Assembly (NCBI GenBank): GCA_900539455.1
Contig: UQCD01000003.1
Span: 41,485-105,484 of the forward strand
DNA length: 64,000 nt
Reading direction: 5' to 3'
Source: an uncultured Eubacteriales bacterium
Lineage (GTDB): Bacteria > Bacillota > Clostridia > Lachnospirales > Lachnospiraceae
In this document: piece by piece, positions 11,020 to 61,973 of the stretch
Position numbering within the stretch: position 1 is the first letter of the stretch
How the letters are laid out: the number at the start of each line of letters is the position of its first letter
Notes under the pieces: model-generated
Told to the model about the DNA's origin: nothing
Seen by the model: only the letters and a program-made list of their open reading frames with translations
Databases searched by the model: none
Position numbers and translations under genes: made by a program

Positions 11020-11035
11020 ATATTATCTCCTCAGA

Positions 11036-12189: not shown

Positions 12190-12191
12190 TA

Positions 12192-12729: not shown

Positions 12730-12756
12730 TACATATTATCTATTCAACCAAATATC

Positions 12757-14082
<1,326 letters not shown>

Positions 14083-14991: not shown

Positions 14992-15016
14992 ATTTTATCT
15001 TAAAGGAATTTACATT

Positions 15017-16339: not shown

Positions 16340-16364
16340 TGACATATAGCAGATTTGAGATGTT

Positions 16365-18941: not shown

Positions 18942-18956
18942 GTTGTTTCCTCGCTT

Positions 18957-45589: not shown

Positions 45590-46332
45590 TATTCCCTTAC
45601 CTCCAATCTTTCTACACATTTGTGACATTTTTGGATTCCCATAAGATAAGGCAGCACCTGCTCCTTGTGGCCAATTTTCTTTATTTGTCCTTCATCAATA
45701 ATCATAATTCTATCTGCCATATTAATAATTTTTTCCTGATGAGAGATTACAATAAGGCTCTGCTTTTTCTCCTTGTGAATTTCTTCAAATTTTTGAATAA
45801 GCATAGAAAAGCTCCACAAATCAATACCTGCCTCTGGCTCATCAAAAATACAAAGTGAATGTTCCTTTGCAAGCACTGACGCTATCTCAATTCTTTTCAT
45901 TTCTCCACCTGAAAGAGTTCCATCTATCTGCCTATTAATATAATCTTTTGCACATAAGCCTACTGCTGTAAGTAAATCACAGGCTTCTTTATCTGTGAGC
46001 TGTTCCCTTGCTGCCAATTTAAGTAATCTTAAAACTGTCATTCCTTTAAATCTTGGAGGCTGCTGGAAGGCATAGCCTATACCTGCATTTGCTCTATGAT
46101 TTATATCAAAGGCTGTTATATCTTGTCCATCCAATATAATCTTTCCATTATCCGGAATCATAATTCCCATTAAGGTCTTTGCGAGAGTTGATTTTCCTCC
46201 TCCGTTTGGACCTGTAATAACCAACATTTCTCCGTCAGCTACCTGAAATGATATATTATTAAGAAGGCATTTTCTACCTCCATCATCATTTACATAAAGT
46301 GTTAAGTTCTCTGCTTTAAGCAATTCCTTCAC
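45589..46332 (-). CDS. sufC: Fe-S cluster assembly ATPase SufC
   Basis: Walker A GPNGGGKST, signature LSGGEMKR, Walker B CIFDE and an H-loop; 247 aa, soluble. It lies directly upstream of the SufBD-family gene. Confidence 0.8.
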   Translation of the reverse strand: MKELLKAENLTLYVNDDGGRKCLLNNISFQVADGEMLVITGPNGGGKSTLAKTLMGIMIPDNGKIILDGQDITAFDINHRANAGIGYAFQQPPRFKGMTVLRLLKLAAREQLTDKEACDLLTAVGLCAKDYINRQIDGTLSGGEMKRIEIASVLAKEHSLCIFDEPEAGIDLWSFSMLIQKFEEIHKEKKQSLIVISHQEKIINMADRIMIIDEGQIKKIGHKEQVLPYLMGIQKCHKCVERLEVRE

Positions 46333-46531: not shown

Positions 46532-47683
46532 CTACCACAGCTTTGCATATATATCAAGTATTGCCTTTTTGTCTACTTCCTTGATTGTATTAGCTGGGCT
46601 TCCACTTGCCAAAGCATCCTCTGCCATTTTGTTCATTGCGTCAAAGAATTTCTGTTTATCAATTCCATACTCTGCTAATGTAGGTATCTGACACTTTCTG
46701 CAAATCTCCTCTAAGGCATATATAAATGACTGTGCCGCCTGATTATCTGTGGTCTCATTGGTAGCACTATCTATTGCTCTGGCTATCGCAGCAAATCTGT
46801 CATAGCAGCCATCAAGAGCATAGGATAAACATTCCTTAATAAGCATTGCATTTGAAATGCCATGAGGCACATGGAACATTGCACCAATAGGTCTGCTCAT
46901 ACCGTGGACTAAGGTAACTGATGAATTATTTATGCACACACCAGCCTCGTAAGCAGCTATAGACATTTCCTCTCTTGCCTTCATATTATTGCCATCATTG
47001 TATGCAATAGGAAGATATTTGAATATTCTTTTAATTGCTGATAACGCATAAGTATCAGTAAGTGTATTTGCTTTTCTTGAGGTAAAAGCCTCTACTGCAT
47101 GGGTAAGCGCATCCATTCCGGTTGCTGCTGTTACTGAAGGTGGCGCAGTCTTAGAAAAAGCCGGGTCTACAATAGCGACATCTGGTAATAAATCATCGCC
47201 CTTTAAAAGATACTTTGTGTCTGTGCTGCTGTCAGTTACGCATAGAAATTTTGTAGCCTCTGAGCCTGTACCTGCTGTTGTTGGAATTAATACTAATGGA
47301 GGAAAATTACCAGCTATTTCCCTGCCTGCATATTCTACAATATTGCCATTTAAGGCAGCCATTGCCTGAATTGCCTTAGCACTGTCCAAGGGACTTCCAC
47401 CACCTATACCAATACAAAAATCGCAATTATTTTCCTTATAAAGTCTTACACCTTCATTAATCATTGTATCTGTAGGCTCTCCTAATATTTCATTATATAG
47501 ATAATATTCTATTGAAGCCTCATTTAAAATATCTGTAAGCTGTTTTACAATACCAGCCTTTGTAACATGCTTTCCACTTACTATAAAGGCTTTCTTACCC
47601 TGCTTACAAATAAGCTCCTTACTTGCATTGAAAGCTCCCTCGCCCATCATTGTTCTTTTTGGTGATGTAAACAAATTTGCCAT
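46532..47683 (-). CDS. Iron-containing (group III) alcohol dehydrogenase
   Basis: GGGSPLD NAD-binding motif and the Fe-binding His cluster (HGMSRP...HVPHG); 383 aa. Confidence 0.85.
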   Translation of the reverse strand: MANLFTSPKRTMMGEGAFNASKELICKQGKKAFIVSGKHVTKAGIVKQLTDILNEASIEYYLYNEILGEPTDTMINEGVRLYKENNCDFCIGIGGGSPLDSAKAIQAMAALNGNIVEYAGREIAGNFPPLVLIPTTAGTGSEATKFLCVTDSSTDTKYLLKGDDLLPDVAIVDPAFSKTAPPSVTAATGMDALTHAVEAFTSRKANTLTDTYALSAIKRIFKYLPIAYNDGNNMKAREEMSIAAYEAGVCINNSSVTLVHGMSRPIGAMFHVPHGISNAMLIKECLSYALDGCYDRFAAIARAIDSATNETTDNQAAQSFIYALEEICRKCQIPTLAEYGIDKQKFFDAMNKMAEDALASGSPANTIKEVDKKAILDIYAKLW

Positions 47684-47768
47684 AACTTTTTCCTCCTATA
47701 TTCCTTCCTGTTTTTCCCTCAAACCTTATCTAATCTTTAGAATTTTTTGTCTGAGTTCCATCTGTTTT

Positions 47769-48224
47769 TTAATTTCTTCCTTTTCCTGTAATACTAACAG
47801 GTGTAATTTTATATACACCAACCTTCTCAGTATTTGAGGCATATTTTTTTCCACTTTCTAAAAAGTCCTTAGAATACTTATTTATAAGGTGCATAAGAAT
47901 TGGGAATTTGTCCTCCTTTATCTCACTTACAGTTCCGAAAACTATTACACTTTCATAATCCATAGAAAAGCTTTGTGAAAGCACCTCTGACTTTCCTACA
48001 ACTGTAAAGGATACCTTGTCACAGTATTTCATATTTTCGTACTTGTGACCTACCTCCTTTGCACAATGAAAATAAATGCAACCATCCTCATAAGCATAAT
48101 TAAGGGGCACACCATAAGGATAACCGTCCTTACCTATGGTAGAAAGTACACCATAGGTACCTTCCTTTAAAACCTTATCAATTCTCATCTGTGAAATAAT
48201 TCTGTCTTTTCTTCTAATCTCCAT
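47769..48224 (-). CDS. Pyridoxamine 5'-phosphate oxidase-like FMN-binding protein
   Basis: GVLSTIGKDGYPYGVPLNY is the split-barrel FMN-binding fold signature. The start is assigned to MEIRRKD (AAAGGAG RBS); the track ORF adds 18 codons without an RBS. Confidence 0.7.
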   Translation of the reverse strand: MEIRRKDRIISQMRIDKVLKEGTYGVLSTIGKDGYPYGVPLNYAYEDGCIYFHCAKEVGHKYENMKYCDKVSFTVVGKSEVLSQSFSMDYESVIVFGTVSEIKEDKFPILMHLINKYSKDFLESGKKYASNTEKVGVYKITPVSITGKGRN

Positions 48225-48316
48225 AGCTACTCCTTTCCTATTTTTATAGCTTTTGCCAATACACTTACTTATAAGCAAGGCTGCTTTATAAGTATAGTCT
48301 AGTCAAATCTATTTAA

Positions 48317-49582
48317 CTAGAATTCCTTATCAGCCTTCAAAACCGCATTCAACATTACCGTTGCCGCACTTGTACAATGCTCTGGTTTTGCATATTCCTC
48401 CTCACAATGAGAAAGTCCTGCCTTTGTCTGAACAAATATCATTGTGGTTGGAAGCATATAGGCCACAAACTGTGCATCGTGGCCAGCTCCAGAATGGATA
48501 TATTCGTAAGATACACCTGTTTCCCTTGCTGCTTCCTCTACATATGAAACCAGCTTTTTATCCCAATAAACAGTATCTCTGTTCCACTGCAGCTTTGTCT
48601 TACAGGTGCAGCCTGCCCATTCCTTTTCCTCTAAGTCTTTAATAATCTTTTCAACCTCTTTTAGCTTTGATTCATCTACATATCTTGCATCAATAGAAAA
48701 ATCTACATAATCAGGCACGCAGGTATGAACATTTGGATGGCATACAATTTCGCCAGTTGTATATACAAGACCTTCTATTCCCAGCTTGTCAATTTCCTCA
48801 TGTAAATAGCAAATAGCCTTTGAGGCTGCAAACAGTGCATCCTTTCTTTTTGCCATAGGAAATGTTCCTGCGTGGGTAGTCTGTCCATAAAAGCTTATTC
48901 TGTAATTAAACATACCTAAAACACAATCAACAACTCCTATATCCTTTCCGTCCTCCTCAAGAATTGGTCCCTGCTCAATATGAGTTTCAAACATACAGCA
49001 GGCATTTTGCCTTGTAACTCTGTTTTCAATTTTACCTTTAAATCCAGATTTTTCAAGAGCCTCGCCGAATGTAGTTTTATTATCTAACACGCTTTTAGAA
49101 TTAAGCATATCCTCCTTTTTAAAGTTTACTCGTATATCCTCTGGAAGATAATCGTAGCACAAAACTCCTGAACTCATCATAGCAGGTGCATATAAAGAGC
49201 CTTCCTCATTAGTCCATATCATTGCCGTAAGAGAGTGCTTATGTTCTATTCCTTCCTTTTCAATAGTTTCAAGCACCTCCATTGCCGATATAACACCTAA
49301 AATTCCGTCATAATTGCCACCGTTTTTTACTGAATCAGCATGAGAGCCCATCATAATACTTTTTGCGTTTTCATCAGTTCCCGGAAGAGTTGCATATACA
49401 TTTGCCATATCATCTATGCTTATAACAGCTCCTATAGCTGTCATTCTCTTTATAAATTCATTTCTCGCCATAATAGCCTCTTTAGAAAGAGAATATCTTG
49501 TAATACCACCATTACCTGTTGCCCCAAATCTTGAAAAGGTTTCTATTTTATCCTTCATTCTTTCTAAACTGCATGAATACAT
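48317..49582 (-). CDS. M20-family Zn-dependent amidohydrolase (allantoate amidohydrolase / N-carbamoyl-L-amino-acid hydrolase type)
   Basis: GSHADSV metal-ligand motif, NEEGS and the later His/Glu ligands; 421 aa. An AAGGAG RBS lies 8 nt upstream. Confidence 0.8.
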   Translation of the reverse strand: MYSCSLERMKDKIETFSRFGATGNGGITRYSLSKEAIMARNEFIKRMTAIGAVISIDDMANVYATLPGTDENAKSIMMGSHADSVKNGGNYDGILGVISAMEVLETIEKEGIEHKHSLTAMIWTNEEGSLYAPAMMSSGVLCYDYLPEDIRVNFKKEDMLNSKSVLDNKTTFGEALEKSGFKGKIENRVTRQNACCMFETHIEQGPILEEDGKDIGVVDCVLGMFNYRISFYGQTTHAGTFPMAKRKDALFAASKAICYLHEEIDKLGIEGLVYTTGEIVCHPNVHTCVPDYVDFSIDARYVDESKLKEVEKIIKDLEEKEWAGCTCKTKLQWNRDTVYWDKKLVSYVEEAARETGVSYEYIHSGAGHDAQFVAYMLPTTMIFVQTKAGLSHCEEEYAKPEHCTSAATVMLNAVLKADKEF

Positions 49583-49594
49583 ACGCTCATCTCC

Positions 49595-51229
49595 TTAGTC
49601 TTTATATACTAATTTTCCGTCAATATATGTTTCTTCTACCTGTATATCCTTTAAATGGTCTACCGGACTTTTTAAAATATCTTCCTTCAAAATAATAAAG
49701 TCGGCTAATTTCCCAACCTCCAGACTTCCTTTTATTTTTTCATCGAAGCTGGCATAAGCACCATTAATAGTAAACATTCTTATTGCATCCATTAAAGGTA
49801 TTCTTTGTGAAATACCACATTCCACACCATTTACAATATCCTTTCTAGCCACAGCACCCCATATACCAAGCATTGGATTTACCTCCATACAAGGTGTATC
49901 TGCACCTGCTGCCGCTATAATTCCATTATCCACATACCATTTATGGGAAAACATTCTTTCCACCCTATCTCCATAGTAGACATTGTAATCCTTTGCGTTA
50001 AAGGCTACTAAGCCCGGATTACTAATAGGGATAATTCCCAGCTTTTTTATTCTCTTTAATAACTCCTCATTAATTAATGCACAATGCTCAATTCTAGGTC
50101 TTGCATCCTCTCTTGGATATTTAGTAAGCACCTTTTCTATTGTATTTACCATTTTTTCTACTGCATTGTCACCTATACAATGGGCTGTTATCTGAAAGCC
50201 TGCAAGATGTGCATCTGTAAAGATTTTAACCATTTCCTCCTCTGTCCAGTTAATTATCTGTGGAAGATTTGGATTATGGCTATAAGGCTCTTTTGTGGAG
50301 CAGGAAGGTGCGCTGCTGCTGCCATCAATTAAAAGCTTGGCAGGTCCCAGCTTATAATGCTCATTACCAATGCCTGTATGTAGTCCGGTTTTAATATGCT
50401 CATAAATAAAATCTCTAATAGAATATTTACCTAACATTCTATATATCATTTCATATACTCTTATTTTTACATCTCCCTTTAAGCAGGCTGTCTGCAATAC
50501 CTTTACAAACTGTCCACCATAGGCACCTGCATCGTGTACGCTGGTTATTCCGTATTTAACAAACATATCATTACAAAGCTTATATGCCTCTAATAGCTTT
50601 TCGTCATTATAGGTAATGACAGAATTCATATACCCAAAGCCTTCCTCCTTAACTAAGCCTGTAAGCTCGCCGTTCTCGTCTAAATCAAGCTCTCCCGGCT
50701 GGAAATTCTTTGCACTTTCCTTTGTCCAGCCAACCATTTCTAATGCCTTGCTATTACATACACCTGTATGTAAATCAGCACGCACACACCAAACCGGATT
50801 ATCTGGCGCTACCTCATCTAAATCTTTATAATTTGGGTGGCGAAGCTCCTTTAGCTTATTCTGGTCATAGCCTTGAAGAATAATCCATTCTTCTTTTTTT
50901 CTGACCTTAACCTCTCTTTTTATAATTTCCTTAATGTCCTCTATAGACTTACATATTTTGTAATCAATAGGAATAACTATATTGTTAAGCAAAATGGCAT
51001 TTAGCATAAAATGGGAATGTGCTTCAACAAAGCCGGGCATTAAGGTTTTTCCAGAAAGATTAGTTACTATGGTTTTTTCGCCAATGTAAGGAGTTATTCC
51101 TTCATCATTTCCTACATAAATAATCTTATTATCCTTAACAGCCATAGCTGTAACTATTTCATTTTCCTTATTTACAGTAATTACACTGCCATTAATAAAT
51201 GCAAAATCAGCAAATAAATCTATCTTCAT
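49595..51229 (-). CDS. Amidohydrolase-family (Amidohydro_3 / YtcJ-like) metal-dependent hydrolase
   Basis: The N-terminal metal-binding HxH (VEAHSHF), later His residues and a terminal Asp (AAAGADTP); 544 aa. Confidence 0.75.
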   Translation of the reverse strand: MKIDLFADFAFINGSVITVNKENEIVTAMAVKDNKIIYVGNDEGITPYIGEKTIVTNLSGKTLMPGFVEAHSHFMLNAILLNNIVIPIDYKICKSIEDIKEIIKREVKVRKKEEWIILQGYDQNKLKELRHPNYKDLDEVAPDNPVWCVRADLHTGVCNSKALEMVGWTKESAKNFQPGELDLDENGELTGLVKEEGFGYMNSVITYNDEKLLEAYKLCNDMFVKYGITSVHDAGAYGGQFVKVLQTACLKGDVKIRVYEMIYRMLGKYSIRDFIYEHIKTGLHTGIGNEHYKLGPAKLLIDGSSSAPSCSTKEPYSHNPNLPQIINWTEEEMVKIFTDAHLAGFQITAHCIGDNAVEKMVNTIEKVLTKYPREDARPRIEHCALINEELLKRIKKLGIIPISNPGLVAFNAKDYNVYYGDRVERMFSHKWYVDNGIIAAAGADTPCMEVNPMLGIWGAVARKDIVNGVECGISQRIPLMDAIRMFTINGAYASFDEKIKGSLEVGKLADFIILKEDILKSPVDHLKDIQVEETYIDGKLVYKD

Positions 51230-51243
51230 ATTTTCTGCCTCCT

Positions 51244-52257
51244 TTAATACTCATATAACAGACAGGAAACTGTATGATTTTCATTAATATCTGTATATGT
51301 AGGTGTTGCATATTTACAGTCATCTCTTGCCATAGGACATCTTGTATGGAAAGGACAGCCACCAGGTGGGTCAATAGGAGAAGGAATATCTCCCTTTAAC
51401 TCAATTCTCTTTTTCTTTACGGTAGGGTCTGCCTCTGGAACTGCTGATAACAATGCCTGTGTATATGGATGCTTAGGATTGCTAAACAATTCCTCTGTAG
51501 GTGCTACCTCAACAATATGTCCTAAATACATTACTGCAATTCTATCTGATACATATCTTACAACGCTCATATTATGTGATATGAAAAGGTAAGATACATT
51601 CATTTCCTTTTTTATGTCAGCTAAAAGATTTAATATCTGTGCCTGAATAGAAACATCAAGTGCTGATACCGGCTCATCACAGACAATAATACTTGGATTT
51701 AAAATAAGTGCCTTAGCTAAACCAATTCTTTGTCTCTGTCCGCCTGAAAATTCATGTGGATACCTGTAATACTGGTCTTTTCTAAGTCCTACCTTTTCCA
51801 TCATATCAAGTACCATTTTTACTCTTTTAGCCTTATCTTTTTCAATTTTATGTATAATAAGTGGCTCTTCAATTAATTCACCAACTGTCATCTTTGGATT
51901 AAGTGAGGTGTATGGGTCCTGAAAAACCATCTGTAAATTCTGTCTTTCCTTATTAAGCTCCTTATTGGAAAGCTTAAAGAAATCCTTTCCCTTATAATAA
52001 ATTTCCCCACTTGTAGGAGAAATAAGTCTAAGTACTGTTCTGCCTGTGGTGCTTTTGCCACAGCCCGACTCTCCTACCAGACTAAAGGTTTCATTTTCCT
52101 TAATGTAAAAAGAAACATCATTAACTGCTTTTACAGTTTTTGCAGCAACTCTCATTTTGGAATCAACTACAAACTGCTTATTTAAATGCTTAACCTCTAA
52201 AATAACCTTATCCTCTGTATATCTTTCCATAGGTGTTTTATTATCGGCTTTACTCAT
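51244..52257 (-). CDS. Oligopeptide/dipeptide ABC transporter ATP-binding protein (OppF/DppF-like)
   Basis: Walker A GESGCGKST, signature FSGGQRQR, and a C-terminal oligopeptide-ABC extension with Cys residues. Confidence 0.85.
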   Translation of the reverse strand: MSKADNKTPMERYTEDKVILEVKHLNKQFVVDSKMRVAAKTVKAVNDVSFYIKENETFSLVGESGCGKSTTGRTVLRLISPTSGEIYYKGKDFFKLSNKELNKERQNLQMVFQDPYTSLNPKMTVGELIEEPLIIHKIEKDKAKRVKMVLDMMEKVGLRKDQYYRYPHEFSGGQRQRIGLAKALILNPSIIVCDEPVSALDVSIQAQILNLLADIKKEMNVSYLFISHNMSVVRYVSDRIAVMYLGHIVEVAPTEELFSNPKHPYTQALLSAVPEADPTVKKKRIELKGDIPSPIDPPGGCPFHTRCPMARDDCKYATPTYTDINENHTVSCLLYEY

Positions 52258-52274
52258 ATCTTTCCACCACCAAT

Positions 52275-53264
52275 CTACATATTTTTAATTGTTTCAAAAT
52301 TGTGGCATCTTACTTTCCTGCTCTTATCAATATTTGTAAGCTCAGGGGGAGTAGTATGACATTTTTCAGTAGCATAATTACATCTTTCGCAAAATCTGCA
52401 GCCTGCACCCTCCATACCAAGTGCCGGTACTGTACCCTTAATCATATAAAGCTTTTCAGCCTTATTGGTACTAAGTGTAGGAATAGATTTTATAAGTCCC
52501 ATTGTGTATGGGTGCTTTGGATTTTCAAAAATATCCTTAACATTTCCCTCCTCGACCACCTGTCCTAAATACATTATTATTACTCTCTGACAAACCTGTG
52601 CTACAACGCCTAAATCGTGGGTAATAAGCATTATTCCCATATCCAGCCTTTTATTTAATTCAGTAATAAGTTCAAGAATTTGTGCCTGTATAGTAACATC
52701 AAGTGCTGTTGTAGGCTCATCTGCTATTAAAAGCTCCGGCTCACAGCTAAGTGCCATTGCTATCATTGCTCTTTGTCGCATACCCCCTGATAATTCGTAT
52801 GGATAACATTTTATTCTCTTTTCCGGTGCAGGTATTCCTGTAAGTCTAAGCAGCTCCTCTGCCTTTTTGTAAGCATCCTTTTTGCTCATCTTCTGATGCA
52901 GCATAAGAGTTTCTGATATTTGGTCACCTAAGGTATAAACTGGATTTAGGGAGCTTAAGGCATCCTGAAATATCATTGCAATTTTATTACCTCTGATACC
53001 CTGCATCTGCTTTTCGTGAAGCTTTAACAGGTTTTCGCCTTTAAATAAAATCTCGCCCTGATAGGTTGCCAGCTTTTTTTCATCATATAAACGCATTATT
53101 GACTGGGAGGTAACGCTCTTTCCACAGCCAGATTCACCAACCACCCCTAGAATTTCACCTTTATTTACACTAAAGCTTACTCCATCAATGGCTGTAACAG
53201 TTCCTCTGACAGTTTTAAATGTAGTCTTTAAATTTTTTACTTCTAATAATTTTTCTGCTTCCAT
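52275..53264 (-). CDS. Oligopeptide/dipeptide ABC transporter ATP-binding protein (OppD/DppD-like)
   Basis: Walker A GESGCGKSV, signature LSGGMRQR, and a C-terminal Cys-rich extension. Confidence 0.85.
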   Translation of the reverse strand: MEAEKLLEVKNLKTTFKTVRGTVTAIDGVSFSVNKGEILGVVGESGCGKSVTSQSIMRLYDEKKLATYQGEILFKGENLLKLHEKQMQGIRGNKIAMIFQDALSSLNPVYTLGDQISETLMLHQKMSKKDAYKKAEELLRLTGIPAPEKRIKCYPYELSGGMRQRAMIAMALSCEPELLIADEPTTALDVTIQAQILELITELNKRLDMGIMLITHDLGVVAQVCQRVIIMYLGQVVEEGNVKDIFENPKHPYTMGLIKSIPTLSTNKAEKLYMIKGTVPALGMEGAGCRFCERCNYATEKCHTTPPELTNIDKSRKVRCHNFETIKNM

Positions 53265-53301
53265 TGCCTAAACCTCCGTTTCTTAATCCGTTATTTACGC
53301 A

Positions 53302-54168
53302 TTAGTTTGATTTTGGATCTAATACATCTCTTAATCCATCACCTAAAATATTTATTCCTAATACTGTAATAATCATTGCAATACCAGGGAATATTGTAAG
53401 CCACTTAGCTGTAAATATTGCTTCCTTGGCATCATATAAAATGTTGCCCAGACTAGGTGCAGGAGCAGGAATACCAGCTCCTAAAAAGCTAAGCGAAGCT
53501 TCAAGAATAATAGCTGTTGCAAAAATGTATGTACCCTGAACAATTACTGGGGACATTATATTGGCTGAAATATGCTTAAATAATATTCTAAAGGAGGAAG
53601 CACCCTGTGCTCTTGCCGCCTCTACATATGTATTTTCTCTTGCTGCTATAGTTGCACTTCTTGCAACTCTTGCAATCTGTGGTGCATATACTACACAAAG
53701 ACTAATAACAACACTTTCAATATTAGGTTTAAAGGCTGACATAAGTGCTATTGCCATAAGGATTGGAGGAATTGACATAAATGCCTCGCAAATTCTCATT
53801 ATAAAGTTATCTAATTTTTTAAAATAGCCTGCTATCATTCCTAATATCATACCGACTACTACTGTTATAAGTGTAGTTACTGAGCCAACTATTAAAGAAA
53901 TTCTTATGCCATATACAATTCTTGCAAAAACATCTCTGCCCATCTTATCTGTTCCAAAAATATATTCGCTGCAGGGTGCTAAATATCTTTTGGTAATATC
54001 CATTTCATATGGACCACCAGGACATATAATATTTGCAAATACTCCGAAAAAAACAACTATTACTGTAAGAATAAGTCCAACTACTGCCATTTTATTTTTA
54101 AAGAAAATCTTTAACTTAAGCTTTCTTCTTTCTTTTATAGCTTCTTTTCCTATTCCATTTGCTTTCAT
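53302..54168 (-). CDS. Peptide ABC transporter permease (OppC/DppC-like)
   Basis: Six TM helices with the binding-protein-dependent permease EAA-like loop (ARAQGASSFRILFKHI). Confidence 0.85.
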   Translation of the reverse strand: MKANGIGKEAIKERRKLKLKIFFKNKMAVVGLILTVIVVFFGVFANIICPGGPYEMDITKRYLAPCSEYIFGTDKMGRDVFARIVYGIRISLIVGSVTTLITVVVGMILGMIAGYFKKLDNFIMRICEAFMSIPPILMAIALMSAFKPNIESVVISLCVVYAPQIARVARSATIAARENTYVEAARAQGASSFRILFKHISANIMSPVIVQGTYIFATAIILEASLSFLGAGIPAPAPSLGNILYDAKEAIFTAKWLTIFPGIAMIITVLGINILGDGLRDVLDPKSN

Positions 54169-54187
54169 GTATATTCACATCCTTTCC

Positions 54188-55141
54188 TTAAGCTTTACCA
54201 CCAACACGAATTCTTGGGTCGATTACACCATATAACAAATCTATTATAAAATTGATTACTATGTATATAAGACTTATTGTAAGCACCAAGCCCTGAATCA
54301 ATGGATAATCTCTTTTTAACACTGCATTAACTACTAACTGTCCCATACCCGGTATATTAAATAGAGTTTCTATTACTGCTGCGCCTGCTACCAGATAGCC
54401 AACACTTTGTCCTAATACTGTAAGTATTGTGTTAAAGGCATTTCTAAAAGCGTGCTTAAATAAAACCGTTTTCCCACTAAGTCCCTTTGCCTTAGCAGTT
54501 TTAATATAATCCTGACTTAAAACATCTATCATTGATGATCTTGTAATTCTTGTAAGAAGTGGAGCCTGTGTTAATGCTAAGGATATAATTGGAAGCACTA
54601 AATATCTGAAATGCTCACCTGCACCATCTGCAAAGGTTTTGTAACCTGATACTGGTAATATTCTTAAATCTACACCGAAATACAAAATCATTAAAAGACC
54701 ATATATAAAGCAAGGAACTGACAAGCCCAGAAGAGCAACTGAGCTTATTCCTAAATCTGCTCCTCTGCCTTTATGCTTAGCAGCAAGAATACCACAGGGA
54801 ATGGATATAAGTATTGCCAACAGCTCTGCATAAAAGGATAATTCAAGAGTTGGTACAATACATTCTCCAATAGCCTCTACTACTGACTGCTGTCTGAAAT
54901 ATGAATCTCCTAAATCTCCGTGAAGTGCATCCTTTATCCAGTTAAAATACTGTGTTATCAATGGATCATTTAATCCTAATTCTTCTCTTAATTGATTAAC
55001 CTGCTCTTCTGTTGCATCTGAGCCTAACATATTGGATGCCGGGTCACCTGCTGTATTATGAGTTAAAAAGAAGATAAATAATGATAAAACAAATAGTGTT
55101 ACCACAATACTAATTAATCTTTTACCAATGTATTTTCTCAT
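54188..55141 (-). CDS. Peptide ABC transporter permease (OppB/DppB-like)
   Basis: EAA loop AKAKGLSGKTVLFKHAFRNA; six TM helices. Confidence 0.85.
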   Translation of the reverse strand: MRKYIGKRLISIVVTLFVLSLFIFFLTHNTAGDPASNMLGSDATEEQVNQLREELGLNDPLITQYFNWIKDALHGDLGDSYFRQQSVVEAIGECIVPTLELSFYAELLAILISIPCGILAAKHKGRGADLGISSVALLGLSVPCFIYGLLMILYFGVDLRILPVSGYKTFADGAGEHFRYLVLPIISLALTQAPLLTRITRSSMIDVLSQDYIKTAKAKGLSGKTVLFKHAFRNAFNTILTVLGQSVGYLVAGAAVIETLFNIPGMGQLVVNAVLKRDYPLIQGLVLTISLIYIVINFIIDLLYGVIDPRIRVGGKA

Positions 55142-55224
55142 ATCTTCACCTCATTTCTAGAATACTTAGGGCTGCCCACCAAAGCTTAGTGCAGCAGCCC
55201 TATAGTAATTATTTCTTTAAGCTA

Positions 55225-56772
55225 TTATTTTGAGCATCCATATACTGTCATACCAATAAAGGTTTTGAAATCCTTAACACCATTTACTGCATATGGCTCA
55301 CTAAAGTAACCAAGTGATAATGATGAAGCTGTCTTTAATAAAAATTCATTAATATCTGACCAGACAGCCTTTGCCTCTTCTACAGAGGTTGCTGCATTTA
55401 ATTTTTCAAAGCCTTCAGTTACCTCTGTAAATCTGCACCAACCATCTGCATTTGTCTGATTAAGCTTTAATGCTGTTGGTACTGTTGCAAGTGGCCACCA
55501 TAATAGACAAGCATCAAACTTTGCTGGGTCCTTCTTCATATCAAGCATTGTTGCCCAATCATAGGTTTCTACCTCTACATTAAAGCCTACTGCTTCTAAT
55601 TCCTTTTCAACAATAAGTGATGCGTCAATCCATCTTGGATATGCTGTTGTTGATAACAATGTAATCGGTGTTCCGTCATAACCTGATTCCTTTAAAAGCT
55701 CCTTAGCCTTTTCGGTATCCTGCTGATTCCAATATTCACTACCTGAATCTGTTCCCCATAAGCCACCCTTATACATATAGCTTGAATACTCCTCTACATA
55801 ATCACCATTTGGTACTGCTGCTGCCATAATCTCGTCTACATTAATTGCATACTGTGCAGCCTGACGGACTAATTCATTTTCAAATGGTCCGTCAACCTTA
55901 TCTAAGGCAATAGCATAGTTACCAACTAAGTTGTTTACAAGTGAAATATCTGAATTACCCTTTAACTGATCTAAATCGTCATAAGAGATTGTCTGTGCAA
56001 TATCATATTCACCACTCTGGATACCTGCTGTTCTAATTGATGAATCAGTAACAATATAGTAATAAATTTCATCAAAGTTGATTACCTTATCGCCTGCATC
56101 ACCTGTAAGTGTATATCCAGGTCCTTTATAATCAGTATATTTAGAAAATCTAACATAGCTATCCTGCTTCCATTCCTCAAACTTCATAGGACCTGTTCCA
56201 ATATATTCTGAAACACCTGTATCTGTTCTTGCATCTACTACCTCTTTAGGCATAATAGCTGCAAACTGACAAGGAGAGGTAAGTACATTTAATAATGTAA
56301 AGGCTGGCTCTGTAAGCTCAATTTTTACAGTATATTCATCAACCTGTTCAAATTTTTCACCTGCTGTAATTACTGATGGTGCAGCAACATTGTTTTCTGC
56401 CCAGCAGTTAAGGGAAGCAGCTACATCCTCTGCCTTCATTTCCTTACCATTATGGAATTTAACACCAGTTCTCAGCTTAAAGGTCCATACTGTATAATCC
56501 TCGTTCACTTCATAGGATTCACAAAGCTGTTCCTTTGGCTCGTAGTTCTCATCTAATTCAAATAATCCCTCATAAATACCTCTGTTGGTATCTCTTACCG
56601 CAGCTGCTGTAGAAAGCCAGGGGTCCAAGGTTGGTGGATTAACTGCCATTGCTACCTTTAATGTTTTTGAATCTGTACCCTTATTACTATCACTGCCACC
56701 ACACGCCATAAGTGAAACTGACATAACACCTGCAAGAGCAGCAGCTATAAATCTTTTAATTTTTTTCATCAT
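55225..56772 (-). CDS. ABC transporter substrate-binding lipoprotein, family 5 (peptide/nickel/opine type)
   Basis: Lipobox LMAC|G; 515 aa, a size and composition typical of SBP_bac_5. Confidence 0.8.
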   Translation of the reverse strand: MMKKIKRFIAAALAGVMSVSLMACGGSDSNKGTDSKTLKVAMAVNPPTLDPWLSTAAAVRDTNRGIYEGLFELDENYEPKEQLCESYEVNEDYTVWTFKLRTGVKFHNGKEMKAEDVAASLNCWAENNVAAPSVITAGEKFEQVDEYTVKIELTEPAFTLLNVLTSPCQFAAIMPKEVVDARTDTGVSEYIGTGPMKFEEWKQDSYVRFSKYTDYKGPGYTLTGDAGDKVINFDEIYYYIVTDSSIRTAGIQSGEYDIAQTISYDDLDQLKGNSDISLVNNLVGNYAIALDKVDGPFENELVRQAAQYAINVDEIMAAAVPNGDYVEEYSSYMYKGGLWGTDSGSEYWNQQDTEKAKELLKESGYDGTPITLLSTTAYPRWIDASLIVEKELEAVGFNVEVETYDWATMLDMKKDPAKFDACLLWWPLATVPTALKLNQTNADGWCRFTEVTEGFEKLNAATSVEEAKAVWSDINEFLLKTASSLSLGYFSEPYAVNGVKDFKTFIGMTVYGCSK

Positions 56773-56788
56773 AGTTTCTACCTCCTGT

Positions 56789-58114
56789 TTATAGCATTTC
56801 TTTATCTACTACAGATAATACCTCATCTAACTTTTCAAGTTCCTCTAACAACTGTTCTTCAGTAATGATTAATGGTGGATTTACAAAAATCATATTTTCA
56901 TGGGAATATGTCATAAATCCTTTCTTTTTAAGCATACCAACAATCTTGCCCATCTTTCCTTCCGGGTCTTTACCATATGGAACTAATGGCTCCTTTGTTT
57001 CTCTATCTTTTACCAGCTCAATACTTGAGAACAATCCAATATATCTGACATCGCCGATGCTTATATGCTTTTCTTTAAATTCTTCAAGCTTTTCTCCAAG
57101 CACCTTGCCTACCTTATTTACATTATCTAAAACCTTTGCATCATCATAATACTTAACGCAGGCAACTCCGGCAGCACAAGCAAGTGGATGTCCGCTGTAG
57201 GTAAGACCACAAGAAAGTACATGATCATCAAAATATTCAGCAATCTTTTTGCTGACAACTACGCCGCCAAGCTGAACATAGCCACAGGTAACACCTTTTG
57301 CAAAGGTTACAATATCAGGCTTTACATCAAAGTTTTCAAATGCGAAAAGCTTTCCTGTTCTGCCCCAGCCTGCCATTACTTCATCGCAAACCATCAAAAT
57401 TCCAAATTCATCACAAAGCTTTCTAACGCCTGGTAAATATCCCTTAGGAGGAATGATTACACCATTTGAGCCTGTAATTGTTTCCATAAAGATTGCAGCA
57501 ATATTATCTGCTCCTTCATATATAATCTGTTCTCTCAGCTTGCCTAAATAATATTCTGTAGCAGCCTCTTCGCTTTCAAATGGAAGCTTTTCTCTATATA
57601 CATATGGGTCAAAGAATTTTACGAAGCCCGGAACTCCTGGCTCTAAGGCGTATCTTCTAGGCTCTCCTGTAAGGTTACCTGCTCCAAAGGAAGAACCATG
57701 ATAGCTTCTATATCTACTCATTATCTTATTTCTTCCTGTAAACATTCTTGCAATCTTTACTGCATTTTCGTTTGCATCTGCACCAGCGTTGGTGAAGAAT
57801 ACTTTTCCCATATTGTCAGGCATTCTGTTTATAATCATTTCAGCTAACTCTGATCTGGGTGCTGATGCGTAGCTGGGTGCTACATAACAATATTTATCCA
57901 CCTGCTCCTTAATTGCATCTGCAATAGCTTTATTACCAAAGCCTACATTCAAATTAACTAACTGTGCCGACATATCTGTATATCTATTTCCGTCATAATC
58001 CCACATATAAATTCCTTCTGCTTTTTCGATAGGAATAGGATTTAAACCTTTCTGTTTACTCCAAGATTGTAAATTGTACTTTAAATGTTTTTCTACTACT
58101 TCTTTACCTGTCAT
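56789..58114 (-). CDS. Class-III (omega) PLP-dependent aminotransferase
   Basis: PLP-lysine region DIVTFAKGVTCGY and Asp in VCDEVMAGWGRTG. The start is placed at MTGKEVVEKH (AAGGAG RBS); the track ORF is extended 43 codons into the upstream hairpin region. Confidence 0.8.
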   Translation of the reverse strand: MTGKEVVEKHLKYNLQSWSKQKGLNPIPIEKAEGIYMWDYDGNRYTDMSAQLVNLNVGFGNKAIADAIKEQVDKYCYVAPSYASAPRSELAEMIINRMPDNMGKVFFTNAGADANENAVKIARMFTGRNKIMSRYRSYHGSSFGAGNLTGEPRRYALEPGVPGFVKFFDPYVYREKLPFESEEAATEYYLGKLREQIIYEGADNIAAIFMETITGSNGVIIPPKGYLPGVRKLCDEFGILMVCDEVMAGWGRTGKLFAFENFDVKPDIVTFAKGVTCGYVQLGGVVVSKKIAEYFDDHVLSCGLTYSGHPLACAAGVACVKYYDDAKVLDNVNKVGKVLGEKLEEFKEKHISIGDVRYIGLFSSIELVKDRETKEPLVPYGKDPEGKMGKIVGMLKKKGFMTYSHENMIFVNPPLIITEEQLLEELEKLDEVLSVVDKEML

Positions 58115-58398
58115 ATCTCTTTTCTCCTTTTCAAAAGACATATTTGCTAACTCAGCAAAAACAAAAAAGCAAGGGCAACCTTTTAAAAGCGCCTTTGCTT
58201 TTTTCAACTGTTTATTTACTTTTTCCTGCCTGCTGTTTAGCATATCTGTATTATATTTTTTGTGAGAAAATTTTCAATAACAAAAATCACAATTATTCTT
58301 GTGCATATGCACAACATAGTAAATCCATACTAAATATACTTCGCATCTGTACAATTAATAATAAATAATGCTTGTACTACCAAGCAGCTTATTATTTA

Positions 58399-59553
58399 TT
58401 ATAATTTCTCTATGTCTAAAACCATTTTTATAAGCAACAGATTATCCAGCTTTGTAATATCCATATTTATTATGCTTTCTATTTTTGATATTTTATAATT
58501 AACAGTATTTCTATGAATAAACAAATCATCTGCTGTTTTCTTAACACTTCCGTCATTATCTATATATATTTTCAGGAAATCATATAAATCTGTTCCATTA
58601 TTTTTGTCATATTGTATAAGTCCACCTAAGGTAGTTCTTTCTATTTCATTAAGCACCTTTTTATCCTTTACTGACAAAAGCACCTTTTCTATTCCAAGAG
58701 TATTATAATAAAGAATATCTACATTCTTTTTTACACACATAGAATATATATCTCTTGCTCTTTCAAAATTTACATCTAGGCTGTTAAGACTTTCTTCATT
58801 GGAGGATACTGCTATATACAGCCTCTTTCTTGTATTGGAATAATATAAAAGGCTGTTCATTAATTCCCGCTGCCCACTATCTGACATTCCAGCAGTAACT
58901 ATTACAAGCTTTCTTTCATACCAGAAAAGTACATATTTTCCCGACTGTGTTTTTTCTATTTCTCTTCGTGCATATATTTCCAAGCTTTGATTATCACTTT
59001 CTACTGAACGAAGGCTGGTATCTATTCCAACAAATATAACACAATAGTTTATATCCCTTTGTAAGCCTCTTCTTTCAAGTATTTCTTGTATTCGTTTTCG
59101 TTCAGCAGGGTAAAATATATAATCCTTAACATTACTGACCAGACTTTTTTCATTGGTTTCGCTATTAAATATTTTTTCACATAGACCTCTGGTTACATCA
59201 ACAAGTCTGGTTTCCCACGGACATACATATAATGGGAAGTTCTTTTCATCACAATATTCAATGATTTTTCTATCTACCTTGCTAATATATGGTCCAATAT
59301 TTATAACCAAGGCACTGGCATTACTTTCAATAAGTGCAGCTATGTAGGAAATCATTGCCTCACTATCCTTGCCAATATTTCCAATTCCTGTAGTAAATAC
59401 CAGCTCATTGCCATTAAGGAATTGAGATACCTCTACATCTTCAATAATATGCACCCAGGAAACCACATTATACAAACCACCCTTTCCAGCAATAAGCTGC
59501 ATTCTGTAATTTTCGTATGCCTTCTGGCAAAGCTTTGCTAATGTAATAGCCAT
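58399..59553 (-). CDS. PucR-family transcriptional regulator (PucR/CdaR type with a C-terminal HTH)
   Basis: N-terminal PucR-like domain (LQLIAGKGGL...WVHIIED) and a C-terminal helix-turn-helix (VKKTADDLFIHRNTVNYKISKIESI). Confidence 0.75.
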   Translation of the reverse strand: MAITLAKLCQKAYENYRMQLIAGKGGLYNVVSWVHIIEDVEVSQFLNGNELVFTTGIGNIGKDSEAMISYIAALIESNASALVINIGPYISKVDRKIIEYCDEKNFPLYVCPWETRLVDVTRGLCEKIFNSETNEKSLVSNVKDYIFYPAERKRIQEILERRGLQRDINYCVIFVGIDTSLRSVESDNQSLEIYARREIEKTQSGKYVLFWYERKLVIVTAGMSDSGQRELMNSLLYYSNTRKRLYIAVSSNEESLNSLDVNFERARDIYSMCVKKNVDILYYNTLGIEKVLLSVKDKKVLNEIERTTLGGLIQYDKNNGTDLYDFLKIYIDNDGSVKKTADDLFIHRNTVNYKISKIESIINMDITKLDNLLLIKMVLDIEKL

Positions 59554-60209
59554 ATGTGTTTCTCCTTTGCACTTCTAATATTTGAAAAATATGTGGTTTT
59601 GATTTTCTCCCATACAGTATTAATTATTTCAAAGCAGACTCGCTCTCGCTCGATTACGATGTAGCGGTACATAAAGCTAGGGAGGATTATTACTAATCTC
59701 CCCTAGCTTAAGTACCGACATCTCCATACGGTCTGCTTTCAAAATTATTAATACTGTATGTCCGAAAATAAATCTACACTTCATCAATATTTATATTTTT
59801 TATCCCGCTGTATTTTCAAATAAACTCACCTCTATAGCAACATCGTATCACATAAAATCAAAATATGATTATGATTAACTACTATTTTTCTTTGCTTGTA
59901 TACTCACATTTACATATTGTCTGTTTTCTAAATTGTTAATACTGTATGCCTAAAACAAATATACTCTTCTCAAATATTATTATAGGGGTGCCAATATTTA
60001 CTTGTAATAGGCTTTGCTTTCTCGTAGACATATTGAAAGCTTTCTTAGTTTTTCTTTTTTGGCAATTCCCTTTCAGCCCTATATTAATATATTTTTGTGC
60101 ATTTGTACATAAATAATTGTCAAAAGTATGATTTTAAATTGTTTTAATATGAGTTATATTGTGCATTAGTTTAATGTGCCACAAGGCACTTAGAAAAGGA
60201 GGAATTGTT

Positions 60210-61973
60210 ATGAATTTTTCAGCAGTAAATACAGTATGGCTTCTTATTGGAACTGTTCTCATTTTCTTTATGCAGGCTGGATTTTGTATGCTAGAAGCAG
60301 GTCTTACCAGAGCTAAAAGTGCTGGTAATATTGTTATGAAGAATATTGTGGACTTTTGCATTGGCTCTGTTGTCTTTTGGGCAATCGGCTTTGGCATTAT
60401 GTATGGGTCCTCAAATGGATTTTTTGGCAAATTTGACTTTTTCACTCAAGGTAATTATTCAGCTATATTGCCAGCAGGTATACCATTCTTTGTATTTTTC
60501 ATTTTTCAGACAGTATTTTGTGGTACATCTGCAACTATTGTATCAGGTGCTATGGCAGAAAGAACCACCTTTAAGGGTTATTGCCTTGCAAGCCTTGCTA
60601 TCTCCCTATTAGTTTATCCTATGACTGGTCATTGGATCTGGGGTAATAGCTGGTTAAGTAATATGGGCTTTCACGATTTTGCCGGCTCTTGTGCAGTACA
60701 TATGGTCGGTGGCTTAGGTGCATTTCTCGGTGCATTTTTCTTAGGACCCCGTATCGGCAAATACGATAAGAACAAAAAATCAAGAGCTATTCCGGGTCAC
60801 AACCTGACCTTAGCAGCTCTGGGAATATTTATTTTATGGTTCTGCTGGTTTGGCTTTAATGGCTCATCAACTACAGCCATTGAAGGTATAACAACTGCTG
60901 CCGATGGCTCTAAGCTTTGGTTTGGTGCTTTAGCTGGCAAGGTTTTGGCTAATACAAATATTGCTGCCTGTGCTTCTACACTTACAGCACTATTTTTCAC
61001 TTGGTTTAGATATAGAAAGCCTGATGTTTCAATGACACTAAATGGCTCTTTAGCCGGTCTTGTAGTTGTCACTGCTAATTCTGATTGTGTTACGATGCCT
61101 ATAGCAGCCTTAGAAGGCGTTATTGCTGGCTTTGCTGTTGTTCTGGCAGTTGAATTTATTGATAATAAGCTAAAGGTAGATGACCCTGTTGGAGCTGTAG
61201 GCGCACATTTTGTTTGCGGTATTATTGGTACTCTATCCATTGGTCTTTTCTCTACTGGTCAAAATGGCGTTGGCAAAGGACTTTTCTATGGTGGTGGCTT
61301 TAAGCAGCTAGGTATTCAGCTATTAGGTATCTTAGCTGTATGTATATATGTAACTATAGTAATGTCTATTGTATTCATTATAATTAAAAAAACTTTCGGA
61401 CTTCGTGTTAGTGCTAAAACAGAAATTGAAGGTCTTGATAATGGTGAGCATGGTCTGGCAAGTGCATATGCAGGCTTTGAATTTAATTCCTCTAGCTTAT
61501 CAGAAAGCGCACTTTATGATGATATTGACTCCTTAGATATTGAAGCCATTGGCAGTGAAGCTGTGGATAAGGCAGTTCCAGCCTTTATTCAAAATTCATC
61601 CTTACCTGAGGATAAAAAAATCACTAAAATACAGGTTCTTATGAAGGAGTCTAAATTCGAGCGATTTAAAAAGGCTATGAATGATATAGGTGTTATGGGT
61701 ATGACAGTTACTCATGTATTAGGCTGTGGTACACAAAAGGGTGCAACTGAATATTATAGAGGTGTTGAAATGGAAATGCAACTGCTTCCAAAAATTCAGG
61801 TGGACATTGTTGTTTCCAAAGTACCTGTTATGGATGTAATCAATGCTACAAGAAAAGCCTTATATACAGGTCATATTGGTGATGGTAAAATATTTGTCTA
61901 TGATGTTGAGGATGTTGTTAAGGTAAGAACTGGAGAAACAGGCTATACAGCACTTCAGGGGGCGGACGAATAA
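60210..61973 (+). CDS. amt: Ammonium transporter (Amt) fused at its C-terminus to a PII (GlnK/GlnB) nitrogen-regulatory domain
   Basis: Amt N-terminus AVNTVWLLIGTVLIFFMQAGFCMLEAGLTRAKSAGNI and ~11 TM helices. After a linker, the last ~110 aa (KITKIQVLMK...GTQKGATEYYRGVEMEM...GDGKIFVYDVEDVVKVRTGETG) form a PII fold with the T-loop Tyr. AAAAGGAGG lies 7 nt upstream of the ATG at 60210. Confidence 0.85.
   Translation: MNFSAVNTVWLLIGTVLIFFMQAGFCMLEAGLTRAKSAGNIVMKNIVDFCIGSVVFWAIGFGIMYGSSNGFFGKFDFFTQGNYSAILPAGIPFFVFFIFQTVFCGTSATIVSGAMAERTTFKGYCLASLAISLLVYPMTGHWIWGNSWLSNMGFHDFAGSCAVHMVGGLGAFLGAFFLGPRIGKYDKNKKSRAIPGHNLTLAALGIFILWFCWFGFNGSSTTAIEGITTAADGSKLWFGALAGKVLANTNIAACASTLTALFFTWFRYRKPDVSMTLNGSLAGLVVVTANSDCVTMPIAALEGVIAGFAVVLAVEFIDNKLKVDDPVGAVGAHFVCGIIGTLSIGLFSTGQNGVGKGLFYGGGFKQLGIQLLGILAVCIYVTIVMSIVFIIIKKTFGLRVSAKTEIEGLDNGEHGLASAYAGFEFNSSSLSESALYDDIDSLDIEAIGSEAVDKAVPAFIQNSSLPEDKKITKIQVLMKESKFERFKKAMNDIGVMGMTVTHVLGCGTQKGATEYYRGVEMEMQLLPKIQVDIVVSKVPVMDVINATRKALYTGHIGDGKIFVYDVEDVVKVRTGETGYTALQGADE

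Follow-up and report, generated by a model that had tools for sequence, protein, structure and literature searches.

The extended reductive pyrimidine degradation pathway of Bacillota, running from PydA to PydE, was reportedly set out by Yin et al. in 2019 (JBC). Clostridial reductive-pyrimidine gene clusters with PydC, PydD and PydE have been described, where the aminotransferase PydD acts on beta-alanine and the reductase PydE on malonic semialdehyde (PMC7332683). In taurine nitrogen assimilation, the amino group is moved to glutamate by a taurine:2-oxoglutarate aminotransferase (Toa), working with TauF, IsfD or SarD (PMC6616044). The YtcJ family of amidohydrolases has, in turn, two named activities, i.e., N-substituted formamide deformylase (NfdA, which frees benzylamine from N-benzylformamide) and taurine-selective bile salt hydrolase, the latter added in 2026 and represented by metal-dependent bile salt hydrolases (mBSH) of gut Bacillota, which free taurine from taurine-conjugated bile acids (PMC13081988). 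In this work, a 64-kb (64,000-nucleotide) stretch of DNA from an uncultured Eubacteriales bacterium of the Lachnospiraceae (contig UQCD01000003.1; the whole stretch is further referred to as the window) was analyzed. The subject is a cluster of eleven minus-strand open reading frames (ORFs) at positions 46532-59553, encoding a PucR-family regulator, a class-III aminotransferase (AT), a peptide-type ATP-binding cassette (ABC) importer, two amidohydrolases (the YtcJ/NfdA-family Amh3 and an M20 amidase), a PNPOx-like flavoprotein and an Fe-type alcohol dehydrogenase (Fe-ADH).

It should be stressed that this cluster is no orphan pathway. Its AT, Fe-ADH and M20 genes are orthologues of genes in a clostridial Pyd cluster (79%, 65% and 73% protein identity, respectively) of a described type (PMC7332683), which corrects the sequence-only reading, an earlier interpretation of this DNA that had recognized no named pathway here. 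The cluster shares with the Pyd pathway a PucR-type regulator, an M20 amidase of the carbamoylase family, a class-III aminotransferase, an Fe-ADH that would make a discarded hydroxy acid and a presumed use as a nitrogen source. It differs in having neither dihydropyrimidine dehydrogenase nor dihydropyrimidinase, in carrying an Opp/Dpp-type importer in place of an NMT1-type transporter, in the addition of the YtcJ-family amidohydrolase and the PNPOx-like protein, and in its M20 amidase, which is a clade-A paralogue and not the copy adjacent to PydAc. Within the 64-kb window no PydA (a DHO_dh protein with Fe-S domains) or PydB was found, and the cluster holds no pyrimidine transporter. What is new here is the Opp-type importer together with the YtcJ-family amidohydrolase in place of PydA, PydB and the pyrimidine transporter; the gene combination, earlier considered unusual as a whole, is unusual in this narrower sense. 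The finding is real and can mostly be explained: the cluster is a variant, lacking PydA and PydB, of a known nitrogen-scavenging pathway, and its front end for uptake and hydrolysis is new. As to its function, we lean towards the scavenging of nitrogen by an operon that draws on the lower half of the extended reductive-pyrimidine (Pyd) pathway of clostridia.

The trunk enzymes and their Pyd relatives

The window proteins were assigned to families by Pfam and NCBIfam profile searches, and all family calls of the sequence-only reading (PucR, omega-aminotransferase, family-5 importer, YtcJ-like amidohydrolase, M20 of the carbamoylase branch, PNPOx and Fe-ADH) were upheld. In the order of transcription, the genes are as follows.

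58399..59553, minus strand: pucR-family regulator, 384 aa (PF07905, 9.4e-30, 103.8 bits; PF13556 (HTH_30), 3.2e-15, 56.1 bits; both above cutoff)
56789..58114, minus strand: class-III aminotransferase (AT), Toa/PydD family, 441 aa with the corrected start (PF00202, 1.6e-88; NF004718, 561 bits vs cutoff 472)
55225..56772, minus strand: family-5 substrate-binding lipoprotein (PF00496 (SBP_bac_5), 3.2e-72; lipobox LMAC)
54188-55141 and 53302-54168, minus strand: two Opp/Dpp-type permeases (PF00528 + PF19300 and PF00528 + PF12911, respectively)
52275-53264 and 51244-52257, minus strand: two ABC ATPases (PF00005 and PF08352, the oligo_HPY C-terminal domain, in each)
49595..51229, minus strand: YtcJ/NfdA/mBSH-family metallo-amidohydrolase Amh3, 544 aa (PF07969 (Amidohydro_3), 6.1e-81)
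48317..49582, minus strand: M20 amidase of the hydantoinase/carbamoylase family, clade A (TIGR01879, 338.9 vs 204; NF006771, 450.9 vs 399)
47769..48224, minus strand: PNPOx/Nim-like split-barrel flavoprotein, 151 aa after start correction (PF12900, 1.4e-16)
46532..47683, minus strand: Fe-ADH, PydE-like aldehyde reductase (PF00465 + PF25137)

The match of AT to BkToa, the taurine:2-oxoglutarate aminotransferase of Bifidobacterium kashiwanohense (PDB 6JIX; 1.6e-160, the next PDB match being 3.4e-78), first pointed to a taurine pathway, and the location of the AT homologues changed that view. Such homologues, at 78-88% identity, are common across Clostridia. In a widespread Clostridium species (locus L083), the gene order is M20, PucR, AT, Fe-ADH, an NMT1-type ABC transporter, dihydropyrimidinase, a PreA-like dihydropyrimidine dehydrogenase carrying Fer4 (ferredoxin) domains and a second M20. 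The identities of the dihydropyrimidinase (489.8 bits with TIGR02033, cutoff 393) and of the dehydrogenase (565 bits with NF006183, cutoff 335) are clear from the profile scores, and the binding protein of this cluster is not TauA (41.7 bits vs cutoff 304). It is to this cluster that the identities given above refer, PucR being 40% identical. In both the window and L083, a PydD-type AT and a PydE-type Fe-ADH are paired under one regulator, and the PucR gene and the operator palindrome (described below) are common to both.

The same AT observations can be built into an alternative, in which N-acyl- or N-carbamoyl-taurine is imported, Amh3 and/or M20 free taurine, AT is a taurine:2-oxoglutarate aminotransferase and Fe-ADH reduces sulfoacetaldehyde to isethionate. 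AT is indeed the nearest relative of the solved BkToa, its homologues are annotated by JGI as taurine--2-oxoglutarate transaminase, and Trp and Arg occupy the positions aligned with two BkToa residues that we take to be its sulfonate contacts. The beta-alanine enzymes of this AT clade may keep the Trp and Arg too, and the clade may accept both beta-alanine and taurine. The general scheme is also shared with the described taurine systems, in which glutamate receives the amino group and a reductase of the Fe-ADH superfamily, where sulfoacetaldehyde reductases are known, turns the aldehyde into a waste product (PMC6616044).

We nevertheless regard the taurine alternative as unlikely. The AT, Fe-ADH and M20 counterparts in L083 belong to a true pyrimidine cluster that yields beta-alanine, and the binding protein encoded there is, as mentioned, no TauA. 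The window Fe-ADH, 70% identical to its counterpart in a goat-colon Lachnospiraceae metagenome-assembled genome (MAG; locus L001) and 57% to that of a Ruminococcus MAG (L002), scored 206.8 bits with the SarD model (cutoff 700) and showed only a weak match to BkTauF (PDB 6JKO; 6.4e-41), limited to a part of the protein. By motif, its candidate metal ligands are D191, H195, H260 and H274, and a His most likely stands where TauF has an atypical Gln metal ligand; the protein is thus outside the TauF lineage and no SarD either. Moreover, the cluster has neither a taurine transporter nor a sulfonate (isethionate) exporter, its importer being of the Opp/Dpp type and not TauABC; it includes two amidohydrolases, and its context points to beta-alanine.

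Amh3, the M20 amidase and the amine they may release

Amh3 shares with NfdA and mBSH the Pfam family, the metal ligands, presumably the amine-releasing hydrolysis of amides and, as regards mBSH, the occurrence in gut Bacillota and a proposed role in acquiring nitrogen jointly with an aminotransferase and a reductase (PMC13081988). Among 80 relatives, the window protein being one of them, the ligands H71, H73, K298, H350, H382 and D444 show a conservation of at least 95%, and H71, H73, H350, H382 and D444 are the equivalents of NfdA H69, H71, H345, H376 and D440. The only PDB relatives found, 3IGH and 3ICJ, are both uncharacterized. Dihydropyrimidinase (PydB) identity is not supported for Amh3 (20.4 bits with TIGR02033, cutoff 393).

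The taurine selectivity of the gut YtcJ-family enzymes (PMC13081988) would also speak for taurine as the released amine. Yet the spacing of the reported taurine-binding set of mBSH (S144/Q290/N337/H393 in B. massiliensis numbering) is absent near those positions in the window protein and its 79 relatives, a result which, judged without a reference alignment, is indicative only. The named mBSH species were absent from the results of two homologue searches, one of them seeded with a Clostridiaceae relative; among the named cluster members searched, Ihubacter and Hominibacterium alone turned up.

To characterize the surroundings of this family, an alignment of Amh3 relatives was used to scan one genome per species, which yielded 79 loci; the relatives were ordered in a neighbour-joining tree annotated with genomic context. 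A sodium:solute symporter adjoins the Amh3 relative in about 40 of the 79 loci, and the symporters tested resemble monocarboxylate or pantothenate permeases. An omega-aminotransferase is encoded within 10 kb in 17 loci, in about 12 of which it is accompanied by a CoA-acylating methylmalonate-semialdehyde dehydrogenase (TIGR01722, above cutoff), and in the Bacillaceae loci a PucR gene is found along with this dehydrogenase. Eight loci have PanB and PanE, ten have S58 beta-aminopeptidase-like genes and 10/79 have carbamoylase-type M20 genes beside the Amh3 relative, while no PydA (within 10 kb) or PydB gene was found near any of the 79. These neighbourhoods (omega-aminotransferase, methylmalonate-semialdehyde dehydrogenase, PanB/PanE and symporters) suggest a beta-alanine-releasing amide hydrolase, and they represent carboxylate, not sulfonate, chemistry, which argues further against taurine. 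The most economical reading is that the Amh3 family hydrolyses amides of beta-alanine, in the window feeding the PydD/PydE trunk. The transporters of the relatives indicate small hydrophilic substrates and not bile salts, another difference from mBSH, and import of bile salts was rejected on these grounds. Deimination of taurocyamine or another guanidino compound by Amh3 was considered as well and dropped, as no supporting context was found.

In one clade of the tree (loci L011, L069, L026, L033, L042, L048 and L052), the Amh3 relatives are flanked by PanB, PanE, a PanF-like symporter, OPT and S58 genes, a cluster of this type lying at 5551-14515 in L069 and L011. Another locus, L010 (673-11389), combines PucR, AT, methylmalonate-semialdehyde dehydrogenase, PanB, a symporter, the Amh3 relative and the 2-hydroxyacid racemase LarAH10, the named models being above cutoff, and this arrangement looks like a catabolic cluster for pantothenate or an N-(2-hydroxyacyl)-beta-alanine. 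Since the protein behind pantothenase (EC 3.5.1.22) is still unidentified (PMC10393543), these contexts bring to mind the stripping of vitamin B5, in which the importer would take up pantothenate or pantetheine, Amh3 would act as pantothenase giving pantoate and beta-alanine, and the second hydrolase would cut the other amide bond or act on a parallel substrate. For the window this is quite improbable: PanB and PanE are missing from its cluster, its Amh3 belongs to a different branch of the tree than the PanB-linked clade, to which it shows only about 44% identity, cleavage of pantetheine is not known for M20 enzymes of the carbamoylase type, and the PanB/PanE context could equally mean biosynthetic salvage of beta-alanine instead of catabolism. 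Rather speculative, too, is the broader proposition that YtcJ-family enzymes are N-acyl-beta-alanine amidohydrolases, with pantothenase in the PanB/PanE clade, and that the window operon imports pantothenate, pantetheine or a related beta-alanine amide by its peptide-type transporter, keeps the nitrogen and excretes 3-hydroxypropionate.

The M20 amidase matched the N-carbamoyl-beta-alanine amidohydrolase of PDB 8C46 at 4.3e-65. Carbamoylase-type M20 genes split into two paralogous clades, A and B, both of which occur beside YtcJ-like genes in other loci, and the window copy belongs to clade A. Locus L083 has one paralogue of each clade (at 5009-6271 and 18455-19321, respectively), 45% identical to each other. 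The clade-A copy there, which is the one 73% identical to the window protein, lies outside the PydB-PydAc block, and because it is preceded by the same operator as AT, we assign both to one regulon.

These data also bear on the possibility that the hydrolases act in series as a replacement of PydB: dihydrouracil, dihydrothymine or another cyclic or substituted ureide would be imported, Amh3 would open or trim it to N-carbamoyl-beta-alanine, and M20 would remove the carbamoyl group. The importer, Amh3 and a carbamoylase-type M20 occur (in the window, L001, L002 and L007) where L083 has its importer, PydAc, PydB and M20; the two M20 clades are interchangeable beside Amh3; PydA and PydB are never near Amh3; and the UrtA-like binding protein of L002 (343 bits) would suit a ureide ligand. 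On the other hand, the known YtcJ-family reactions free primary amines from amides and none opens a cyclic imide, Amh3 and AT occur with no decarbamoylase within 10 kb in L003, L027, L032, L020 and L045, and the symporters beside most Amh3 relatives are, as stated, of the monocarboxylate or pantothenate permease type. We consider PydB replacement unlikely. The evidence on the order of the two hydrolases is nonetheless split: parallel action is favoured by the family chemistry and by the five loci that have no decarbamoylase, and serial action by the exchange of the Clostridium set for importer, Amh3 and M20 and by the UrtA-like protein of L002.

Conservation, feeder modules and regulation

The eleven window proteins were compared with the 79 Amh3 loci and with the loci of close AT homologues. 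All eleven genes are kept in the same order in L001, with 52-89% protein identity, so the arrangement is not due to chance, and the conservation of the gene set that the sequence-only reading had proposed to check is confirmed. Locus L002 retains AT (82%), Amh3 (64%), Fe-ADH (57%), M20 (48%) and PucR (38%), and its Opp-type importer is replaced by a Liv-type ABC system with the UrtA-like binding protein (343 bits being below the model cutoff); it additionally has a cytidylate-kinase-like gene and, divergent downstream, a glutamate dehydrogenase gene. In L086, PucR, AT and Fe-ADH are joined by EamA and an amino-acid ABC transporter, in this order, an arrangement that looks like a module for a free amine. 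A Cytidylate_kin2 gene recurs in two PucR/AT/Fe-ADH clusters (L002, 8105-8731, and L086, 15130-15717) and is absent from the window.

The feeder genes and the trunk are physically separated in a Coprobacillaceae MAG. Its L082 island (4073-16822) encodes a homologue of the Opp-type importer (47-72%), three YtcJ-like proteins, an AAT/Ntn-hydrolase and an M20 of clade B (53%), and about 5 kb away on the same chromosome L085 (7171-13120) has a cyclase, Fe-ADH, AT, a second Fe-ADH and PucR. The island is flanked by IS66, IS605 and mutator transposases, and the feeder module may be mobile. Locus L029 of Lysinibacillus composti (288-11647) is another feeder variant with different downstream chemistry, comprising an Opp-type importer homologue (42-63%), an FAD-linked oxidase, a class-I/II aminotransferase, a YtcJ-like gene and a GntR/FCD regulator.

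In L001, L002, L083, L085 and L086, the genes for AT and Fe-ADH have the PucR gene as a neighbour, and the enzymes stay together while the type of transporter varies, as a functional unit would be expected to do. This speaks against an ordinary peptide-uptake operon with unrelated enzymes, for which the Opp/Dpp type of the importer could be cited. The importer itself is complete, with an SBP_bac_5 lipoprotein, two BPD_transp_1 permeases and two oligo_HPY ATPases, and all specificity models tried with its binding protein remained below cutoff (GsiB 149.6 vs 594, NikA 116.6 vs 600, CntA 105.2 vs 800, DppA 90.2 vs 1005). The assignment to the Opp/Dpp family 5 thus stands, and no peptide, nickel, glutathione or opine subfamily can be added to it. 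The best PDB match of the binding protein was 8VDX, for which a literature search found nothing relevant. Equally poor is the case for a classical role of PucR in purine or allantoin catabolism. The PucR regulon of Bacillus subtilis does resemble the cluster in that its activator is of the PucR family and its PucF is an M20 amidohydrolase from the same broad family, and the window M20 also matches models named allantoate amidohydrolase. However, the cluster has no counterpart of allantoinase, uricase or xanthine dehydrogenase, no ureidoglycolate enzyme or class-V aminotransferase, its aminotransferase belongs to another class and its operator is different, and its AT and Fe-ADH are orthologous to PydD and PydE genes. 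With these pathway genes absent, allantoin or purine catabolism was dropped, and we find both explanations, the classical and the peptide-uptake one, very improbable. Finally, the N-acetyltaurine genes naaS and naaABB'CC' of Cupriavidus and Ruegeria are said to be a proteobacterial system with a LysR regulator serving aerobic dissimilation; by description it also joins a five-component ABC importer to an amidohydrolase freeing an omega-amino compound that is then transaminated, and it lacks the carbamoylase and the Fe-ADH that the window operon has.

Upstream of AT, the following regulatory elements were recognized, together with those of the divergent neighbour.

58300..58313, palindromic (no strand assigned): candidate operator, 14-bp perfect palindrome TGTGCATATGCACA, 22 nt upstream of the -35 box
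58250..58277, minus strand: operon promoter TTGAAA-16-TATAAT, with 11/12 consensus matches, the top-scoring site of the region
58150..58204, minus strand: leader element in the 5' untranslated region (UTR), box AGCAAAGGCGC followed by a strong hairpin and U-run (inverted repeat; -16.5 kcal/mol)
60096..60160, plus strand: operator near-copy TGTGCATTTGTACA and promoter-like site of amt-glnK, the copy lying 23 nt upstream of TTTAAA-16-TATATT
60159..61973, plus strand: fused ammonium transporter and PII protein (amt-glnK), one ORF (PF00909, 6.5e-113; PF00543, 4.3e-22)

The genes, their strand and their positions agree with the sequence-only reading, which had described eleven tightly spaced, co-directional genes headed by PucR, but two start codons have to be moved and pucR forms a separate unit. 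The AT ORF as originally called (56789-58243, 484 aa) contains the best promoter-like site of the region (58277->58250); because of this internal promoter, the length of 440-444 aa in 110 of the 120 best homologues and the presence of an alternative ATG at 58114 preceded by a good ribosome-binding site, AAAGGAGAA, the gene was redefined as 56789-58114. The PNPOx-like ORF, first given as 47769-48278, probably starts at 48224, and public contigs call the 151-aa version. Directly after the pucR stop codon there is a hairpin (58386-58369), then a 284-bp spacer that holds the promoter before AT, so pucR is taken as its own transcription unit, followed by a ten-gene operon with intergenic gaps of 12-92 bp. 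No signal peptide was found on the window hydrolases, and the binding protein has a lipoprotein signal.

The palindrome, a near-consensus promoter and a leader with a hairpin were found upstream of AT in four genomes (the window, L001, L086 and L083). In all of them about 22 nt separate the palindrome TGTGCA-NN-TGCACA from the -35 box downstream of it, with one mismatch in the L086 copy, and the exact pattern TGTGCANNTGCACA is present in 7 of the 89 fetched loci, always before genes of PucR/AT/Fe-ADH clusters. Between the promoter and the AT start, a leader box, AGCAAAGGNGC, is followed by a hairpin and U-run (window 58150-58204, L001 2995-3045, L086 8930-8975 and L083 8935-8990), with z-scores of -4.7 to -6.9 for the hairpins of L001, L086 and L083 when the leaders were folded separately. 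The stems vary in sequence at a constant position, and this explains why RNAalifold gave no consensus structure for the four leaders; in Rfam, no credible family was found for the leader or for the region upstream of pucR. The leader is possibly an undescribed, terminator-like attenuator. The operator copy before amt-glnK has one mismatch to the exact pattern and a promoter spacing like that of the operon (23 vs 22 nt), so that amt-glnK is probably co-regulated with the operon; the gene is also a neighbour in L001, L080 and L081. From these motifs we infer that the adjacent PucR activates the operon, that ammonium uptake is regulated jointly with it and that attenuation adds a second level of control.

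As for the surroundings, the window has a G+C content of about 35%, which together with its nearest named homologues points to a Lachnospiraceae bacterium of the gut. The amt-PII fusion (604 aa from TTG, 587 aa as called on the public contig) is divergent to the cluster, and spoIIAA-spoIIAB-sigF lie on the same side. Downstream, past a 200-bp gap with a promoter-like site, there are genes for a SufC-like ATPase and a short SufBD-core protein (44663-46332), and no clear intrinsic terminator was seen after the Fe-ADH gene. A hairpin of about 180 nt is located just upstream of the pucR start (59590-59790; minimum free energy -77 kcal/mol, z = -9.8). Its 31-nt inverted repeats enclose an inner hairpin of 16 nt, and a third, partial copy lies at 59894-59955; outside these three sites the core motif does not occur in the window, and the short spacer between amt and pucR in L001 lacks it. 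The hairpin may represent a structured 5' UTR of pucR or a small palindromic insertion. A phosphoribosyltransferase and a xanthine/uracil permease, encoded as a pair on the plus strand at 14410-16339, represent ordinary pyrimidine salvage with no link to the operon.

Proposed pathway and its meaning

From the gene families, the orthology to Pyd genes, the synteny and the conserved operator, promoter and leader, we infer the following chemistry, amine and substrate type for a nitrogen-scavenging operon on the Pyd trunk. The separately transcribed PucR would bind TGTGCA-NN-TGCACA and activate the ten-gene operon, whose transcription would additionally have to pass the terminator-like leader hairpin. 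The lipoprotein and the Opp/Dpp-type ABC importer would bring in a small amide or ureide, from which the two presumably cytoplasmic metallo-amidohydrolases, Amh3 and M20, in parallel or in series, would liberate an omega-amine, most likely beta-alanine, with M20 additionally releasing NH3 and CO2 from a ureido group. The Toa/PydD-family AT would then transfer the amino group to 2-oxoglutarate, giving glutamate and malonic semialdehyde, and the Fe-ADH would reduce the latter to 3-hydroxypropionate, to be discarded. The general logic proposed earlier (uptake, de-amidation, transamination, then handling of an aldehyde) is thereby retained. Of the two proteins to which the last step had been ascribed, the PydE-like Fe-ADH fits this role, and nothing ties the PNPOx-like protein to it: its score with NimABCDEF is 89.8 bits (below the cutoff of 260), and among the relatives its gene is kept solely in L001 (52% identity). 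A PNPOx-like uracil reductase replacing PydA would be chemically conceivable, but the gene is missing from L002 and the idea, having no other support, was rejected.

Several points weigh against the proposed Pyd-based operon. To our knowledge, an Opp-type importer has no precedent for any of the proposed substrates. The window Fe-ADH reached no NCBIfam cutoff, the PNPOx-like gene has no place in the scheme, and the cluster contains no 3-hydroxypropionate exporter. The M20 copy next to PydAc in L083 belongs to clade B and is only 47% identical to the window protein, so the role of the latter, a clade-A protein, as beta-ureidopropionase is less secure than the 73% identity suggests. No enzyme of the operon has an assayed homologue closer than 57% identity, and the sole solved close relative of AT is a taurine aminotransferase, in agreement with the JGI names. 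Likewise, the characterized gut relatives of Amh3 within the YtcJ family are taurine-specific (PMC13081988).

With these reservations, the comparison suggests that anaerobes use a modular trunk (PucR, Toa/PydD-type AT and Fe-ADH) for the nitrogen of beta-alanine (or taurine), to which interchangeable feeder modules are attached. In the mBSH preprint, taurine genes were recognized by at least 28% identity to Tpa and at least 25% to SarD (PMC13081988). Such a criterion would also take in PydD/PydE-type genes, and the "taurine genes" of the gut may partly be PydD and PydE. Besides the two named YtcJ-family activities, the contexts of Amh3 predict a third specificity, towards amides of beta-alanine, and provide a gene candidate for the orphan enzyme pantothenase. 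The exact Amh3 protein is indexed in 116 blocks of a public assembly collection, which suggests that its function is ecologically relevant in gut communities. If the pantothenase explanation were true, it would mean microbial destruction of vitamin B5 in the gut by an abundant member of the Lachnospiraceae.

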